A stretch of 64,000 nt of DNA. Origin: a virus. Positions 31,377 to 38,037 of the stretch are shown here, one piece after another. The position numbers and the translations under genes were made by a program. The stretch lies in IMG/VR virus record IMGVR_UViG_3300015371_000016, positions 1 to 64,000 of that record; one strand, given 5' to 3'. Within the stretch, counting starts at the first letter, position 1, and each line of letters starts with the position of its first letter. Below the pieces are notes generated by a model. The model saw only the letters and a list, made by a program, of their open reading frames with translations. It was not told where the DNA came from and ran no database searches.

Positions 31377-31873
31377 ATCTGAGCCTTCAGCTCATCCAAA
31401 GCAGCAGCAACGCGCTCAATGCTTATATCGAGTGCACTGGCGATTGCACCAAGGCTCATCGCTGTTCCGTGTTGGCGTATATACTGCTGAACCAGCTCAG
31501 CGTCGCGGCTCAACGATGTCTCACAGGATTCGCGCGATCCGGCTCAGTTTCTGGCTTCTCCGCTGGCTTCTCCGCCGGCTTCTCTTCCTCTTGCTTCGGA
31601 ACTCGTGGAGCGCCTGGGTTGTTCGGATCGATCGGCTCGACCTCAGAAGGCGGAGCGGCTGGTTCGTCTTCTTGCGGCTTCTTAGCCATAATCATCTCCC
31701 TTGGTCTTAACGGTTCATAGTGCCAGTAATCCCAGCGCATTGCACTCACTAGCGAGGTGCGATCGCTGCCCTCTATCGTAGGAACGAGGTATGTGTGCCC
31801 TTCCACCAACGGCGAGATTAACTGGTCCGCTCGTGGATAATCGCGCCCATCGTCAGGCGGACGGCTGATTTTC

Positions 31874-32743
31874 TTAGGCTCTTTCTGCTTGCGCCGCAGC
31901 ATGCACGACATCCCTAGACGATGGCCCATACATATACGGCAGAGGCCCTAGCATAATGTGTCCGGTCTGCGTCGCGTAGCGCACCGCCTGGATGTCGGGA
32001 TGCGCAGCGAGCCATTCATTGATCGCGCTGTTGACCGTGCAATAGGCGATTACGTCGTCCACCAGGATGTATTTCGCTCGGCCGAAGCAGAGCGCGATGT
32101 CCTTCAGCGCGCCTTCGTGGCTGTGATTGCCGTCAATGTGCGCGAGATCGTACGTCCGTGACAAATGCGTCAAAGTGCCGCTATCGCACCGTGCAAGCCT
32201 CAGCTCGTGCTCCGGATACTCCTCGTGCAGCATCCCGTTCGCGTAGGTGATGTCGCCGATATCGATGCCGTGGTAGATCGTGCCGGCAGCACATCCTCGC
32301 AGCATCGCCCAGGCTGAGTAGCCGGCACGGACGCCGATTTCAAAGATGCTCTTCGGTCGCAATGCAGAGCATAGCTCGGTGTAGAGGCTGTAACTCGGCG
32401 GGAAAAGTTCGGTGCGCTGATACTCGTCGAGAAAGAAGTCGCCTTGAGCGAAAATGCGTTGCGGTAGCGTGCCGTTGCCTTCCCACTCCACCCACGGCAC
32501 CGCATTGAGCGCGTCCTGCGGCCCGATCGTGCGGATGAATACTATCTGCCGTTCGTCGCTGTCCCAGATTTCCAGGTCCATGATCGGATCGCCGTCCGTG
32601 ATCAGCTCACGAACCTCGAATCCAACATTGGACTCTTTGTGCGGAATACGATCGGACGGGCAAAGATAGACCGTGCAATCCTTGCCATTGCCGAGGCGCT
32701 GTCCTTGTCGTGCGATCTCGGCGAGGATTTCAGCGTCGGTCAC
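31874..32743 (-). CDS. Class I SAM-dependent methyltransferase (Methyltransf_24-like)
   Basis: FEIGVRAGYS motif I; DLAHIDGNHS...VDD; GTG start overlaps the MuF stop. Confidence 0.75.
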   Translation of the reverse strand: MTDAEILAEIARQGQRLGNGKDCTVYLCPSDRIPHKESNVGFEVRELITDGDPIMDLEIWDSDERQIVFIRTIGPQDALNAVPWVEWEGNGTLPQRIFAQGDFFLDEYQRTELFPPSYSLYTELCSALRPKSIFEIGVRAGYSAWAMLRGCAAGTIYHGIDIGDITYANGMLHEEYPEHELRLARCDSGTLTHLSRTYDLAHIDGNHSHEGALKDIALCFGRAKYILVDDVIAYCTVNSAINEWLAAHPDIQAVRYATQTGHIMLGPLPYMYGPSSRDVVHAAAQAERA

Positions 32744-34509
32744 GCAGGCAGTTTCTCCCGTGCGGTATCGAGCGCCTGCCTTCCACGTGCTGTCAACATG
32801 TCGTCGGGCAGATCGCGTAGGTGGTAGATGTAAACGTAATAGCAGCGGCAGTTGTGCGTTACGACTCCCTGGGCTACATACCAATTATTGATAGTTTGGA
32901 GATTGTAGACGTGCCCAGACCAAGGCCGGTTATTGATGTGGACCACATTGCTGCGCTTCGTAGCGAAGGGAAGGCTGTCTATGAAATTGCTGACGCCATT
33001 CACGTAAAGCCGACGACCCTCTGGGAGTGGCACAGGAATAGATGGATCGATCTCGGGCCAAAGTTGCCCCCTAGCCCGCGTATTTGTCTCGACCAACGCG
33101 CTATCCGCGCCGCCCATGACAGCGGTGAAAGTGTGCTCTCGATAGCCAATAGGTTTGGCGTATCGCGTTTGACGATCAAACGTCATATTCAGAAGGCCGG
33201 CGGACAACCTCGTACCCAGACTGAGGCAAATATCCTCATCGCTAGAAATAAGACGCCCGACCAACATAGTGCTGACGCCAAGGCTGCTCATCAAGCTAGA
33301 CGAGGCAAAAAGGCTTCGCGCACCGAATTGCTGCGTAGAGCAAGAAGTCAGTCCAAGATAATCGGGTACGGAGAGGCCGAACTTGTTACCGCTCTTACTG
33401 CTAAGAACCTGCGCCCCGACGTACAACGGCCTGTAGGTCCATACAATATCGATATCGCTATCGGTACCATCGCCGTGGAATTGCTGGCGCTGCCCACGCC
33501 GTGTCTCAGAGAACCCAAATTTCACGAGCGAGCTATATATTTGCTCAATGCTGGGTATTGCATCGTTATCGTCAGATTCCGTCCCGGCGACCTCTCCGGT
33601 AGCCTCGATGACGTGATCGCCATTATTCAAAGACTGAATAGGACGCCACCCGCACGGCGTAAGAATTGGATGATTTGGTGTCGCGCGGAGCGTTTTACCC
33701 GTGTCCGTAATCAGCTCGGTCAATTGACCGCTGTACCAGCGCCGATACGCTACTTCCACACCATCAGCGAATGGAAGCCTGGTATCTCCCGGTAAGCAGA
33801 ATATTTCTTCGCCCGGCTGAGTGATCTTGTCCGAGAAGCCCGCGTCTCCGGCCCGCATGAAGCCGCGTGTGTGCGCCCAGCTATTCCGGATCGCATACAC
33901 CTGCTGGTCGCGCTCCTTGTGGTCCTCGCGATAATCGTAGCCGGACTGGCGCCAGTGTGAGCGCCAGCGTGCGGCAATCGCTCCCGCGTCCTCTGCTAGG
34001 ATCGCCGAGACCGAAGCATTCAGCTTGTGACCCTGATCGATGATCACCCGTCGCTCGACGAACGGCAGCGAGGTCAGACCCTTGCGTATCTCCCGCTTCT
34101 GCTCTCTGCGGTCGAGCTGGTCGGTGCCGCCAATCGGGACACTGGTGGCCCAGCCCTGAAAGCGCCTCAGCGTGTCGTTGATCGCCTGCTCACGGTTCAG
34201 TTTGATCAGATCGGCTGACGCCTGGATGCGTCGGTTTAGTTCCGCCCGCAGCTTCGGCGCTATCCGCTGTACCGTAAAGCGATCTACACCTGGATGGCGG
34301 CGCAGCACCGTTCCTTCATCGATCAATCGCGTGTAGGTCGAGCCTAGCACCTTGCGCAGCTCTTCGGCCAATGAACGCTCTGACACCATGTCAGTAATGG
34401 CCGCCTCGCGGATCAGATCGATCCAATACTGCAAACGCTCTTCGGACTCATAGCCGTGCTCAGCGATATCGTTCAGCGCGTCAGTGACAACCTGGAAGAA
34501 CGTGGCCAT
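32740..34509 (-). CDS. MuF/SPP1 gp7-like minor head protein containing an intein
   Basis: IDQGHKL...WRSHWRQSGYDYREDHKERD...PGEEIF[intein]CRC. Confidence 0.85.
   Translation of the reverse strand: MATFFQVVTDALNDIAEHGYESEERLQYWIDLIREAAITDMVSERSLAEELRKVLGSTYTRLIDEGTVLRRHPGVDRFTVQRIAPKLRAELNRRIQASADLIKLNREQAINDTLRRFQGWATSVPIGGTDQLDRREQKREIRKGLTSLPFVERRVIIDQGHKLNASVSAILAEDAGAIAARWRSHWRQSGYDYREDHKERDQQVYAIRNSWAHTRGFMRAGDAGFSDKITQPGEEIFCLPGDTRLPFADGVEVAYRRWYSGQLTELITDTGKTLRATPNHPILTPCGWRPIQSLNNGDHVIEATGEVAGTESDDNDAIPSIEQIYSSLVKFGFSETRRGQRQQFHGDGTDSDIDIVWTYRPLYVGAQVLSSKSGNKFGLSVPDYLGLTSCSTQQFGARSLFASSSLMSSLGVSTMLVGRLISSDEDICLSLGTRLSAGLLNMTFDRQTRYAKPIGYREHTFTAVMGGADSALVETNTRARGQLWPEIDPSIPVPLPEGRRLYVNGVSNFIDSLPFATKRSNVVHINNRPWSGHVYNLQTINNWYVAQGVVTHNCRCYYVYIYHLRDLPDDMLTARGRQALDTAREKLPA
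32851..33798 (-). mobile_element. Intein (316 aa) in MuF
   Basis: Block A CLPGDT, block B ATPNHPILT, block F VYNLQT, block G THN followed by Cys+1; removal restores PGEEIF-CRC. Confidence 0.9.
32911..33795 (+). CDS. HTH + DUF559/Vsr-like endonuclease encoded antisense inside the intein
   Basis: GGAGA 8 nt before GTG 32911; two HTH motifs; GEAELVTAL...QRPVGPYNIDIAIGTIAVE nuclease-like core. Confidence 0.75.
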   Translation: MPRPRPVIDVDHIAALRSEGKAVYEIADAIHVKPTTLWEWHRNRWIDLGPKLPPSPRICLDQRAIRAAHDSGESVLSIANRFGVSRLTIKRHIQKAGGQPRTQTEANILIARNKTPDQHSADAKAAHQARRGKKASRTELLRRARSQSKIIGYGEAELVTALTAKNLRPDVQRPVGPYNIDIAIGTIAVELLALPTPCLREPKFHERAIYLLNAGYCIVIVRFRPGDLSGSLDDVIAIIQRLNRTPPARRKNWMIWCRAERFTRVRNQLGQLTAVPAPIRYFHTISEWKPGISR

Positions 34510-34524
34510 TCGTTCCTACTGACG

Positions 34525-34744
34525 TTGCGTTGCGTTGCGTTGCGTTGCGCAGCGGTGCGTGGCGGTGCGTGGCGCTGTGGAGAGGCGCGTTGCGGAGCGG
34601 AGCGATGCGGAGCGAAGTGGTGCGGTGCGGTGCGTTGCGTGGCGGTGCGCAGCGATGCAGCGCGGCGAGGTGCGGTGCGCGGCCGGGCGGAGCGTGGCGT
34701 GGCGTGGAGAAGCGCGGCGAGGCGTAGCGGTGCGTGGCGGCGCG
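34525..34744 (-). repeat. 5-nt periodic CGC-NN array (44 units)
   Basis: Plus strand NN-GCG in unbroken register; 37 of 44 triplets are GCG by hand count. Confidence 0.9.
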
Positions 34745-34750
34745 AAGACA

Positions 34751-35272
34751 TTACTTCCTGACATGAGAACGTCGTGGCGACAGACTGATCATCCATTCGA
34801 CTGCATTGAACGCGGGCAGATCGTTGGACGATCCGCGTGATACCTTCTCGATAGCTCGTACACCGCGCCTCGAAAGCGTCCATAGCGCCGCTTCGCGCAC
34901 GATCGAGTCCGTAGAAAACCGTGCCTGCTCGTCGAGATTTAAAGCGTCTAGCTCCACTACCTCTGCCTGCTTCCGGCCGGCGCCAAGTCGGTTATTGGCT
35001 CCCTTAAGATACCAAGAATGCTGTCGCTCGGCGATCTCTGGATCGGTCAGCCGACGCAGTCCGATCCTCGGACGGATGCAATCCCAAACTTGCAAATGTT
35101 CTCTCTCAAGTATGCGGCGCGCGGAAATCAGAAAGCCAGTAGAGGAAGTCACAGGTACGCCAGCTATCGACGATAGGTCTTCGTAAGTGAAGACTGATCC
35201 TTTCTCGTTCTGGGCCAGATATCGAACTAGGGCTGATGTAACCCCCGAACGCTCGAACTTGATCACGATCAA
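34751..35272 (-). CDS. Accessory protein of the RAMP/array cassette, possible winged-helix N-terminus
   Basis: 173-aa ORF filling the space between two arrays; AAGGA RBS (GTG 35266 is an alternative start). Confidence 0.7.
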   Translation of the reverse strand: MIVIKFERSGVTSALVRYLAQNEKGSVFTYEDLSSIAGVPVTSSTGFLISARRILEREHLQVWDCIRPRIGLRRLTDPEIAERQHSWYLKGANNRLGAGRKQAEVVELDALNLDEQARFSTDSIVREAALWTLSRRGVRAIEKVSRGSSNDLPAFNAVEWMISLSPRRSHVRK

Positions 35273-35280
35273 TCCTTATA

Positions 35281-35540
35281 TTGCGTTGCGTTGCGTGGCG
35301 GCGAGATGCGAGGCGTAGCGCGGCGTTGCGAGGAGGCGATCTGCGTTGCGTTGCGTTGAGGCGAGGTGCGAGGCGGTGCGGAGCGTCGCGTTGCGGTGCG
35401 CAGCGGCGAGCGGCGCTGAGGGGTGGCGCGTGGCGATGCGTAGCGTTGCGTGGCGACGAGCTGCGCGGCGGCGAGTTGCGAAGCGTAGCGTGGCGTCGAG
35501 CTGCGAAGCGGTGCGTCGCGAAGCGCTGCGGGGCGTGGCG
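35281..35540 (-). repeat. 5-nt periodic CGC-NN array (52 units)
   Basis: 260 nt in unbroken register; 41 of 52 triplets are GCG, most others GAG. Confidence 0.9.
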
Positions 35541-35546
35541 CCGATA

Positions 35547-36134
35547 TCAGACTTTTAACTCCTGCCACTCGAACTTGGTTACACGGAAGCGCCCATTGCT
35601 GCCGGCATTAGCGGGCCGTCCACGACCGAGGCCGACGATCATCCCGCCTGATCTGAGAGTATGCTCGAAGACCTCGGCAGTAATAATGTCATCGACAACC
35701 GTGAACTCAGCGACGCCGTGCCATTTATCGAATACCGGAAAGCGGCGCTTGACGCGCTTTCCTGATCCACGCACGCCGTCAGAATTGGCGTTGATCATAA
35801 CCATCTTGGCGTCGTCTGGCTTGAGCGGCTTGCCGTTCGCGATCGGCATATTCCCGTTGCAGATTACGCCGGAGGTAAAGAAGCTCTTATATGTCGCTCC
35901 GCGCCGGCCGGGCACCTTGTCGCCCAGCTTCTGCGCTGCGAGATCGATGCATTGCTTCAGTCCCATCTGTGGAACACAGACTTGCCCTTCCGCTGTCGTG
36001 GTGCACTTTTCCCGCCACGTCCGCGCGTCATAGTCATCGTGAGACTCGCGATCTAGCCACGGCGCTTCGTGCAGCGCGGATTGGCTATAGGGTGAGCCAG
36101 GAATCGATTCCAGATATGCTTTGCATGTCTTCAT
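35547..36134 (-). CDS. Stand-alone RAMP/Cas7-like protein
   Basis: N-terminal strand plus SPYSQ; VPQMGLKQCI helix; RVKRRFPVFDKW; C-terminal Gly-rich loop GGMIVGLGRGRPANAGSNGRFRV. Confidence 0.7.
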   Translation of the reverse strand: MKTCKAYLESIPGSPYSQSALHEAPWLDRESHDDYDARTWREKCTTTAEGQVCVPQMGLKQCIDLAAQKLGDKVPGRRGATYKSFFTSGVICNGNMPIANGKPLKPDDAKMVMINANSDGVRGSGKRVKRRFPVFDKWHGVAEFTVVDDIITAEVFEHTLRSGGMIVGLGRGRPANAGSNGRFRVTKFEWQELKV

Positions 36135-36546: not shown

Positions 36547-38037
36547 TTATCTCGAACTAGCCAATTTGAAGCTAGGTGGCTTAAGCCCAGCCGCCATTCC
36601 GTTGGCGCCCTGGCCGCCCTGGTCCATAAGCAAGCTCTTCTGTTGCGCATCCTGCATATCCTGCGCATGCGCGGCAAGGGCCTCGGTATCCAGAGAAAGC
36701 GTGCCCTGGAAGATCAGCTCAGCTTTATTGACCTCGCTTTGCAGCCACTCGGTCAGCCGAGCCTTATTCTCGGGATCTAAGCTGCCATCGTTCAGTAGCT
36801 GGTAAAGCGCCAGCGCCGCCTTCATCTTTGTATCCTCAACCTTCACCTTCTCGCTGTCGGGCTCTTGGATCAGCGAAGGCCACTCGGCCGTGAAGTTATT
36901 CTGCCATGTCTGCAACGCTGAGGCGTAGCGGACGTTGCCATATTCCTGCGGATACTCCTGCTGGATGCCTCGATAGAATTCTTCGTTCCAGGCACGGTGT
37001 TGGACGATGTTGGTCAGCCACTCATAGACCGGGTCCATGCTCTCGCGGAAGCCGTCCACAAAGCGAGCAATCACCTTGGCATCCTCGGTGCCCTCGCCGA
37101 AGCCCTCGACCATCGTTTCGTTCTCTAGCAGGATCGCCGGCAGAGCCGCACCGGTCGCTAGATTCTTGAGAATATTATTCCTCGCGAATGTGCCGGCGCC
37201 GTCGATATTCGTTAGATTGAGCGAAGAGATATCTTCGTCCACGCCGATCGACAACACGTTGTCCGTGCGGCCCTCTTGCAGCATCGATCGCTTGCGAGCG
37301 AATATGTTGATCATCCCTCTATTAGCGATACCACCGGGTGCCTGCATCTTTGCGATCAGCAGTCCCGCTTTCCGGGCGATCATGTCGTCGGTGATCATGC
37401 AGTGCAGGTAGCTCTTGAGCGGATAAAGCACCCGCTGAAAAACCGATCTTCCCGTGAATCCGAACGCGCTGCCGGTATACGATATATACAGCGGCTCCTC
37501 GTTCATCACCACACACGTGCGGCTGGGATGGTAGGTCTCACCCTGCGTCGTTACCTGCATCGCCTTTTGGAACAGTGGCGAATTCGGGTCCTGGTCGAGC
37601 ATTAGGCTGCCGGCGGTATTCAGCGGATCGAGCACGTTCAGGAATATGCTGTCCGTCGCTAGAGTCCCTACTTCCAACGGTGCCGTCGCTGGCTTGCCCT
37701 CGATGCCTAGCACCACCGAAGAAAGGCCGTAGATGCGCGACTGCTTGATGACGTTCGCGATGACCTTGTCGGCCTTCATCGCACGCCACTGTTTCTGGAA
37801 TGCCTCGGCTACTCGCTCGGGCGCGCCTGAGACGGTGATCTCTCGGTCCTGGCTCTGTGCGAGCTGGATCGGCGCTTCGACCATCTTGGCGCCGATCGGA
37901 TGATACAGATAGATCAGCTTGCAGAGCTGGTAGCTCACGTCGCTGCCGGGCAGGATATCGTCAGCGGTCAGTATCTGCATCAGCGCCGGCCCGACATTGG
38001 AGCCGACGACCGAGATCGATGCTCCGCTACCGCTCAT
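36547..38037 (-). CDS. Portal protein (DUF1073-like)
   Basis: SYQLCKLIYLYHPIG...DPLNTAGS...FGFTGRSV...GFGEGTEDAK; follows TerL. Confidence 0.85.
   Translation of the reverse strand: MSGSGASISVVGSNVGPALMQILTADDILPGSDVSYQLCKLIYLYHPIGAKMVEAPIQLAQSQDREITVSGAPERVAEAFQKQWRAMKADKVIANVIKQSRIYGLSSVVLGIEGKPATAPLEVGTLATDSIFLNVLDPLNTAGSLMLDQDPNSPLFQKAMQVTTQGETYHPSRTCVVMNEEPLYISYTGSAFGFTGRSVFQRVLYPLKSYLHCMITDDMIARKAGLLIAKMQAPGGIANRGMINIFARKRSMLQEGRTDNVLSIGVDEDISSLNLTNIDGAGTFARNNILKNLATGAALPAILLENETMVEGFGEGTEDAKVIARFVDGFRESMDPVYEWLTNIVQHRAWNEEFYRGIQQEYPQEYGNVRYASALQTWQNNFTAEWPSLIQEPDSEKVKVEDTKMKAALALYQLLNDGSLDPENKARLTEWLQSEVNKAELIFQGTLSLDTEALAAHAQDMQDAQQKSLLMDQGGQGANGMAAGLKPPSFKLASSR

Follow-up and report, generated by a model that had tools for sequence, protein, structure and literature searches.

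Results

The head gene and its intein

The DNA analysed here, referred to as the window, comprises positions 1 to 64,000 of IMG/VR virus record IMGVR_UViG_3300015371_000016, which is 77 kb long. On the minus strand the window encodes a MuF-like head morphogenesis protein that is interrupted by a class 1 intein, and the DNA of this intein carries, on the plus strand, a second gene, the product of which combines two helix-turn-helix (HTH) motifs with a Vsr-like nuclease core and may be a homing endonuclease. The features of the minus strand are listed below in window coordinates (pLDDT, predicted local distance difference test score of the AlphaFold model; ORF, open reading frame).

32740 to 34509, minus strand: MuF-like head morphogenesis gene, precursor of 589 amino acids (aa), coordinates including the stop codon (ORF list, PHROG, tblastn)
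33799 to 34509, minus strand: N-extein, precursor residues 1-237 (tblastn, and colinearity with Shewanella phage QDWS up to the junction)
32851 to 33798, minus strand: class 1 intein of 316 aa, precursor residues 238-553, Cys1 to Asn316 followed by Cys+1
33412 to 33798, minus strand: N-terminal lobe of the intein as modelled, residues 1-129, with blocks A, N2, B and N4 (pLDDT mostly above 90)
32998 to 33411, minus strand: intein residues 130-267, filler in the sense frame, free of stops but lacking conservation at the protein level (pLDDT below 50)
32851 to 32997, minus strand: C-terminal splicing lobe of the intein, residues 268-316, with blocks F and G (pLDDT above 90)
32743 to 32850, minus strand: C-extein of 36 aa, starting with the Cys-Arg-Cys motif of MuF and continuing the intein-less homologue straight past the junction

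The precursor matches PHROG head families with E values of 1e-48 and 1e-19, and tblastn of the head protein returns phage MuF and head proteins, with the N-extein being ~48% identical to MuF homologues without intein from Shewanella, Klebsiella, Pantoea and Yersinia phages. As the intein-less MuF protein of Shewanella phage QDWS crosses the junction uninterrupted into the Cys-Arg-Cys motif, the insertion is precise and in-frame.

That the MuF protein contains an intein with its splicing blocks, as proposed in a preliminary description of the sequence, is borne out by the key residues, by a family match and by the fold. The intein has Cys1, Thr40 and His43 of block B (Thr-x-x-His), His315-Asn316 and Cys+1, and it matches the Pfam family Intein_splicing (PF14890) with 37.0 bits at a cut-off of 35.8. 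C1, T40, H43 and N316 are invariant across the intein and its relatives in an alignment of 30 sequences; the 29 related inteins that were extracted all lack stops and have Cys as first and Asn as last residue, with a Cys at +1, and block F and the terminal Asn are kept in them. The AlphaFold model of the intein aligns with hedgehog Hint and with the NpuDnaB and Mtu RecA inteins at Z scores of 12-13 over 107-112 residues, and with 2cw8, 1dq3 and 7qsu at Z scores of 10-12. In this model both lobes are confident, whereas residues 130-267 remain at low pLDDT throughout and are predicted to be disordered. A Pfam scan of the 200 sense-frame interior residues matched no family. The interior of ~200 aa had been taken as filler in its entirety; the missing Pfam match and the disorder agree with that idea, but only intein residues 130-267 are filler.

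An antisense gene in codon register with the intein

The plus strand contributes the following features.

32898 to 32902, plus strand: Shine-Dalgarno sequence of the antisense gene (GGAGA, 8 nt upstream of its GTG), reverse complement of the block F Asn-Leu-Gln codons
32911 to 33795, plus strand: antisense gene, starting with GTG and ending with TAA (33793-33795), for an HTH-HTH-Vsr-like protein of 294 aa (putative homing endonuclease)
32944 to 33039, plus strand: first HTH, nuclease residues 12-43 (Pfam HTH_23, 28.4 bits, cut-off 24.6)
33082 to 33195, plus strand: second HTH, nuclease residues 58-95 (Pfam HTH_38, 40 bits, cut-off 27, E 3e-10)
33358 to 33660, plus strand: Vsr/DUF559-like nuclease core, residues 150-250 (fold comparison, profile, invariant columns)
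33664 to 33774, plus strand: C-terminal beta-hairpin tail, residues 252-288 (strands 252-266 and 272-288 of the model), facing blocks A, N2 and B of the intein

The antisense ORF lies entirely within the intein, and the two frames are codon-aligned because its stop codon is the complement of the codon for intein Leu2, so that the number of an intein residue equals 297 minus that of the nuclease residue opposite. Both strands are open for 885 nt, blocks A, B and F included. The preliminary description had already given this arrangement, i.e. an ORF of 294 codons wholly inside the intein with its GTG, TAA and GGAGA, aligned with the intein codons and open on both strands for ~885 nt including block B, and every element of it was recovered.

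The start signals lie opposite block F. Of 27 aligned loci, 25 have a start codon that is the reverse complement of a His codon of block F, with a Gln codon taking its place in one more, and in 19 of the 27 a GGAG located 8 nt before the start is the reverse complement of the next Asn/Asp-Leu-Gln codons; the window, with GTG and GGAGA, fits this pattern. The stop is always opposite a Leu or Ser codon, as the register requires, and its position varies from intein residue 2 to ~30; at a single locus it lies in the N-extein (L044:2474-3262, plus strand; related loci are designated by L numbers), where the antisense ORF continues past the first codon of the intein. The nuclease core (residues 150-250) is encoded opposite intein residues 47-147, which belong mostly to the confidently modelled N-terminal lobe.

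Domains and fold of the antisense protein

Two HTH motifs had been suspected in the antisense protein, and both score above the curated Pfam cut-offs (see feature list). The AlphaFold model, calculated from an alignment of 20 sequences, has a mean pLDDT of 87. In VIA-align comparisons the C-terminal half superimposes on Vsr (1cw0) with Z 11.7 and a root-mean-square deviation of 2.5 over 111 residues, on the homing endonuclease I-Bth0305I (3r3p) with Z 10.1 and on the DUF559-like protein 3hrl with Z 9.1, and these scores are clearly separated from the unrelated rows beneath. A Foldseek search of the PDB ranks 3hrl and 3r3p first, with no hit below E 0.001. A search of the PDB with the single sequence yielded nothing useful, i.e. 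a family profile was needed; by sequence alone, this profile reaches E 1.3e-6 with 3hrl and E 5e-9 with the tandem-HTH protein 2lvs.

E155, Q172, Y178, N179, D181, E190 and R207 are invariant in the family or nearly so. D181 and E190 are strictly invariant and E155 nearly, with their equivalence to Glu25 and Asp51 of Vsr being taken from motif position and the 3hrl profile alignment only. The invariant R207 lies near the expected final Asp of the EDxHD motif, as judged from motif spacing rather than structural alignment. A Trp-His motif following the Glu190 strand matches by position His69 of Vsr and His213 of I-Bth0305I, the proposed general base (PMC3239194), and is kept in 18 of 48 family members.

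The C-terminal tail, which a free-standing homologue (see below) has kept, can be aligned with the C-terminal portion of Vsr. Residues 226-294 evolve like a shadow of the intein frame in the three closest nested pairs for which there is a tail bin, and pairs of greater divergence give a mixed picture.

Distribution and conservation of the layout

With the antisense protein as query, tblastn found 124 GenBank phage records, the hosts being Salmonella (62), Gordonia (15), Pseudomonas (15) and Klebsiella (8) as well as Vibrio, Acinetobacter, Haemophilus/Aggregatibacter, Edwardsiella and others. Among the matches listed, the tblastn matches lie under genes for head, MuF or hypothetical proteins and in one case under a capsid maturation protease. 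Two scans of IMG/VR added 55 distinct loci with a GC content of 0.38-0.67, and in all of them both strands are open over the whole match with an identical frame relation. Together with Aaphi23, Gordonia phage Malisha, a Vibrio and a Pseudomonas phage, Salmonella phage S55 and a Chromatium metagenome-assembled genome (MAG), this makes 61 nested loci, and the antisense register is identical in 61 of 61.

An unannotated antisense ORF of ~270-340 codons is present inside the annotated head genes of Aaphi23 (299 codons from the aligned start), Malisha (297), Vibrio phage PvVp04 (301) and the remaining examined phages, Pseudomonas phage BR313c and Salmonella phage S55, and the antisense gene is unannotated in 8/8 nested GenBank phage records examined. 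A large protein collection holds only two called copies of the protein, because gene callers choose the sense ORF, and the alignments were therefore built from translated loci. A Salmonella phage record flagged UNVERIFIED was left out, as it has no ORF of at least 200 aa in 3.5 kb. The search of bacterial genomes, which used a strict pattern and for this reason gave a single locus, returned only that in the Chromatium MAG.

Most related inteins occupy the same MuF site, immediately before the Cys-x-Cys motif, the exceptions being L018, L020 and the Chromatium locus. In the latter (CAIUAY010000004.1, L079:1115-3409, minus strand) intein and antisense nuclease lie upstream of the Cys-Arg-Cys motif and the +1 residue is Thr instead of Cys. 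As this unit sits elsewhere in the MuF protein, the intein together with its antisense nuclease has moved to a second insertion site. In L018:2329-4077 and L020:1307-3313 (both minus strand) the host ORF has no Phage_Mu_F match and the C-extein starts with Cys-Val, not Cys-Arg-Cys, i.e. the host protein is possibly different from MuF; the host protein of Mycobacterium phage Sejanus, to be compared with these two, is annotated as capsid maturation protease. Several relatives, among them L047:2288-5383 and L060:1630-5124 (both minus strand), carry intein and antisense gene near the C-terminal end of a portal fusion that exceeds 1000 aa; L060 combines portal and Phage_Mu_F, and no Mu_F match was found in L047. 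Short forms of the nuclease that contain the second HTH only are encoded by L010, L011, L013, L014, L023, L026 and L030. Their inteins have 264-305 aa as compared to 310-348 aa otherwise, and they keep the start codon on the block F His codon (Gln in L013).

Selection changes strand along the element

In the register found here the third codon position of one frame coincides with the first of the other, so that the two frames compete. We determined the ratio of non-synonymous to synonymous substitutions (dN/dS; Nei-Gojobori estimates) for both frames in pairs of related loci. In the pair L017/L025 the nuclease frame has a dN/dS of 0.16-0.19 over nuclease residues 30-225 (three bins), where the intein frame has 0.86-2.98; opposite intein residues 3-71 the values are 1.4-2.8 in the nuclease frame and 0.00-0.15 in the intein frame. 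Six further pairs show mostly the same pattern, the switch in the interior being present in all, weakly in L028/L030, and the tail bins being weak, absent or missing in L018/L020, L028/L030 and L005/L046. Across related pairs, the intein frame is constrained opposite intein residues 3-71 (dN/dS 0.00-0.68), and the nuclease frame is constrained opposite residues 72-267, including residues 72-129 of the modelled N-terminal lobe. Over filler residues 130-267 the intein-frame dN/dS is ~0.5-3.0, mostly near 1, with a BLOSUM conservation of ~0. Thus, as the strand-wise dN/dS values of the relatives document, purifying selection switches strand along the element, and the change takes place at about nuclease residue 225 (window ~33586).

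Amino-acid conservation, expressed as mean BLOSUM scores over 48 non-redundant sequences, gives the following values.

HTH and linker region: nuclease frame 1.0, intein frame ~0
Nuclease core: nuclease frame 1.9, intein frame 1.1
Opposite blocks A to B: nuclease frame 0.8, intein frame 2.1

The nuclease frames of the window and its nearest relatives L028 and L030 (44-46% identical) agree at 41-45% of the interior residues, their intein frames at 26%; opposite the N-terminal lobe the intein frames are the more similar ones, with 62-64% as compared to 55% for the nuclease frames.

These data bear on two alternative explanations of the locus. Long antisense ORFs are typical of GC-rich genes, and the plus-strand ORF might be such a chance open frame: GC is 52-64% around the site, and the codon-aligned antisense frame of one other window gene is open for 494 codons. 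With the codon usage of 22 further long ORFs of the window, an antisense frame of 294 codons would be free of stops with a probability of 0.004, or of 0.00025 if the 58 Leu/Ser codons actually present are taken into account, but owing to the 494-codon run these figures are suggestive only. The comparative evidence is far stronger than either of them. HTH matches above curated cut-offs, a confident nuclease fold, homologous antisense frames that stay open in phages of 38-42% GC, a dN/dS of 0.1-0.3 in the ORF's own frame in relatives and a free-standing homologue that is an annotated gene of an Acinetobacter phage all contradict a chance frame, which we reject as practically inconceivable. The antisense ORF is a real gene under selection.

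Conversely, the sense-frame interior of the intein could be a diverged endonuclease or another functional domain, with the antisense ORF as its mere shadow. A few sense-frame motifs are indeed conserved, and AlphaFold is highly confident for intein residues 76-129. However, these motifs are exact reverse complements of the invariant strand residues of the nuclease, e.g. the invariant sense residues Gly109 and Leu125 face nuclease Ala188 and Gln172, and the sense-frame dN/dS stays mostly near 1 over intein residues 72-267 (~0.5-3.0). With no Pfam match and residues 130-267 disordered, a sense-frame endonuclease is largely refuted and was rejected as highly improbable. For intein residues 76-129 (window 33412-33570, minus strand) pLDDT exceeds 90, yet their own dN/dS is near 1 in relatives; since the sense motifs at ~107-125 shadow strand residues of the nuclease, the confidence of AlphaFold in this region may be partly borrowed.

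A free-standing relative

In Acinetobacter phage vB_AbaM_IME285 (MH853786.1) the nuclease homologue is an annotated free-standing gene (L081:455-1348, plus strand), located tail to tail with the 3' end of an intein-less MuF gene (L081:1342-2118, minus strand), with which it overlaps by 7 nt. The frame antisense to it is full of stops. Alignments of the protein with its nested counterparts extend from end to end, C-terminal tail included, both for Aaphi23 (E 2e-42) and for the Vibrio phage (E 6e-49). A maximum-likelihood tree calculated from 47 sequences places the window in a clade with L028, L030 and L034 (support 100/99), and the sister of this clade (95/95) consists of IME285, Aaphi23 and the Vibrio phage. 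The free-standing form is therefore nested among intein-borne forms, suggesting escape from an intein or loss of the intein. As the branch is long and free-standing members were not exhaustively searched, the direction of this change is only a lead.

Surroundings of the head gene

Two stretches with a GC content of 0.68 and strong GC skew (~0.30), window 34500-34800 and 35250-35550, lie in the 2 kb between the MuF gene and the nearest long minus-strand ORF upstream of it (36547-38037). In all six frames they consist of repetitive Arg/Ala/Cys-rich ORFs.

Discussion

A composite element with a putative antisense homing endonuclease

Based on these findings, we regard the element in the MuF-like head gene as very probably a composite selfish element, composed of a class 1 intein and an antisense gene for a putative homing endonuclease of the HTH/Vsr-like type. 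The intein, with both splicing lobes intact, would remove itself from the head-protein precursor by protein splicing, and its 138-residue middle is nothing but an open, unstructured linker. The separate gene on the opposite strand starts inside block F and runs back to the second codon of the intein; in its product, two HTH modules for DNA binding are followed by a helical linker and a nuclease core of the Vsr/DUF559 type. Homing is the most likely function, i.e. the protein would recognize and cut the intein-less MuF allele at or near the junction, repair would copy the whole element into the cut allele, and splicing would restore the head protein, rendering the insertion harmless to the phage. 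The antisense gene would be transcribed from its own promoter, against a ~40-kb block of minus-strand genes. Transcription from this promoter, DNA cleavage, the target site and splicing are all steps that we infer.

Several observations weigh against this explanation. The closest intein-less allele found is only ~48% identical, which gives no sign of recent homing of the window copy. A scan of 31800-34800 for sigma-70-like promoters found none, which is weak evidence. The dN/dS of the window lineage itself is saturated, as there is no close relative, so that the evidence for selection comes from relatives and from amino-acid conservation. A Pfam scan up to E 1 matched neither the Vsr nor the DUF559 family. 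Moreover, the Trp-His motif is absent from the window protein, as well as from Aaphi23, the Vibrio phage, L030/L034, L038, L047, L053, L060, L065, L068 and L070. Since the equivalent of the catalytic histidine of Vsr is lacking, nuclease activity of the window protein cannot be assumed. The DUF559/Vsr-like core of the preliminary description is hence supported by the fold (Z 11.7 to Vsr) and the 3hrl profile, but neither by a Pfam match to these families nor by a catalytic histidine. Likewise, its two-strand selfish element holds as far as the antisense HTH/Vsr-like gene in codon register is concerned, on the grounds of homology, fold and per-strand selection, while the activity does not follow.

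The missing histidine opens the way for another explanation, according to which the antisense gene is real and selected but no longer cuts DNA here, its product being a DNA-binding regulator or repressor, a nuclease helper or a recently disabled relic. The two HTH modules, which are the best-scoring parts by sequence, would be in line with such a role, as would the vertical-looking inheritance of most VSR-type inteins noted in a preprint (10.1101/2025.01.02.630785). Nevertheless, E155, D181, E190, Q172, Y178, N179 and R207 are invariant or nearly so in the members without histidine as well, and PD-(D/E)xK-fold nucleases are known to vary the third catalytic residue (discussed in PMC3239194). 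In addition, the nuclease core of the His-less pair L028/L030 has a dN/dS of 0.26, so that the protein is functional in some way. We therefore consider a non-cutting protein unlikely, albeit worth keeping in mind, and retain the putative homing endonuclease. In Salmonella phage S55 the histidine of the homologue is replaced.

Relation to known systems

The layout, which the preliminary description had set against the usual in-frame endonuclease domains of inteins, is not new. For LAGLIDADG endonucleases encoded antisense to inteins (Synechocystis DnaX, Chloroflexus SpoVR-like), the preprint of Gosselin, Arsenault & Gogarten (bioRxiv 10.1101/2025.01.02.630785, v2 Oct 2025) refers to Gorbalenya 1998 and Gogarten et al. 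2002. As far as they are described there, these inteins likewise have an endonuclease gene opposite an intein that is open in its own frame, but the nuclease family (LAGLIDADG instead of Vsr-like) and the host genes differ. The preprint itself reports "anti-sense VSR-like" endonucleases ("VSR -1 ORF") in inteins of MuF-like minor capsid proteins of actinobacteriophages, with Z 10.6 to Vsr 1cw0 and an HHpred match to 3R3P. The window has the host protein family (MuF-like), the antisense -1 register and the Vsr-like fold in common with them. In tblastn the window protein matches Malisha (E 8e-14), Sejanus (4e-11) and APunk, ViaConlectus and Sampson (6e-11), each time antisense to the MuF gene, and, with Keitabear, Sedona and Kewpiedoll included, the E values range from 8e-14 to 3e-8. 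As these eight Gordonia and Mycobacterium phages are tabled as VSR -1 ORF in the preprint, the window element is a homologous new member of a kind already described.

The preprint surveys PhagesDB only, whereas the window derives from an uncultured IMG/VR phage, the extein of which is closest to gammaproteobacterial phages. Word searches of the preprint text found no mention of hosts beyond those of actinobacteriophages (Gram-negative), of start-codon or ribosome-site signals, or of a synonymous-substitution analysis, i.e. of per-strand selection. The wide occurrence beyond actinobacteriophages, the test for selection in either frame and the start signals opposite block F are thus modest extensions, and the free-standing relative is a further addition.

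The EDxHD homing endonucleases of the I-Bth0305I type (PMC3239194) also combine an N-terminal HTH-type DNA-binding region with a C-terminal Vsr-fold nuclease, and, like the window protein, both I-Bth0305I and the products of the free-standing genes in "fractured genes" (Dassa et al. 2009, PMC2677866) occur in phage DNA in association with inteins. However, their genes are found in group I introns or, at the fractured-gene loci, between the halves of split inteins, and no antisense overlap with an intact intein is described for them; the window protein, unlike the I-Bth0305I-type enzymes, lacks the His of the EDxHD motif. Canonical bifunctional inteins such as PI-SceI and PI-PfuI share the Hint-fold splicing domain and presumably the life cycle of homing plus splicing with the window element, but they carry a LAGLIDADG or HNH endonuclease in the same polypeptide. 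In the window the nuclease is a separate protein from the other strand, and its synthesis thus need not follow that of the host protein.

A more far-reaching scheme combines three proposals and, as a whole, appears rather doubtful, if conceivable. First, the element may be a dual-coding unit of both strands rather than a nested gene in filler, with ribosome-binding site and start codon hard-wired into block F, the core co-encoded with intein residues 47-147 and the tail with blocks A-B. Second, catalysis in the His-less clade that includes the window may depend on an arrangement for which there is no description among Vsr-like homing enzymes to date. Third, the free-standing gene of IME285 may be an escapee of an intein, which would invert the origin suggested hitherto, and in this case inteins may be a source of free-standing homing endonuclease genes.

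Implications

For the window the result is mainly confirmatory. In the wider family, the absence of annotation in the records examined and the mere two called copies imply that a whole family of mobility genes is invisible to standard pipelines, and inteins with an antisense nuclease can be misread as decaying or as mini-inteins. Moreover, the element provides a clean natural antisense overlap in viruses that infect bacteria, in which selection is seen switching strands within a single element of 0.9 kb. Finally, and here we can only infer, a homing enzyme that is split from the spliced polypeptide and encoded on the other strand would allow homing to be timed independently of late head-gene expression.

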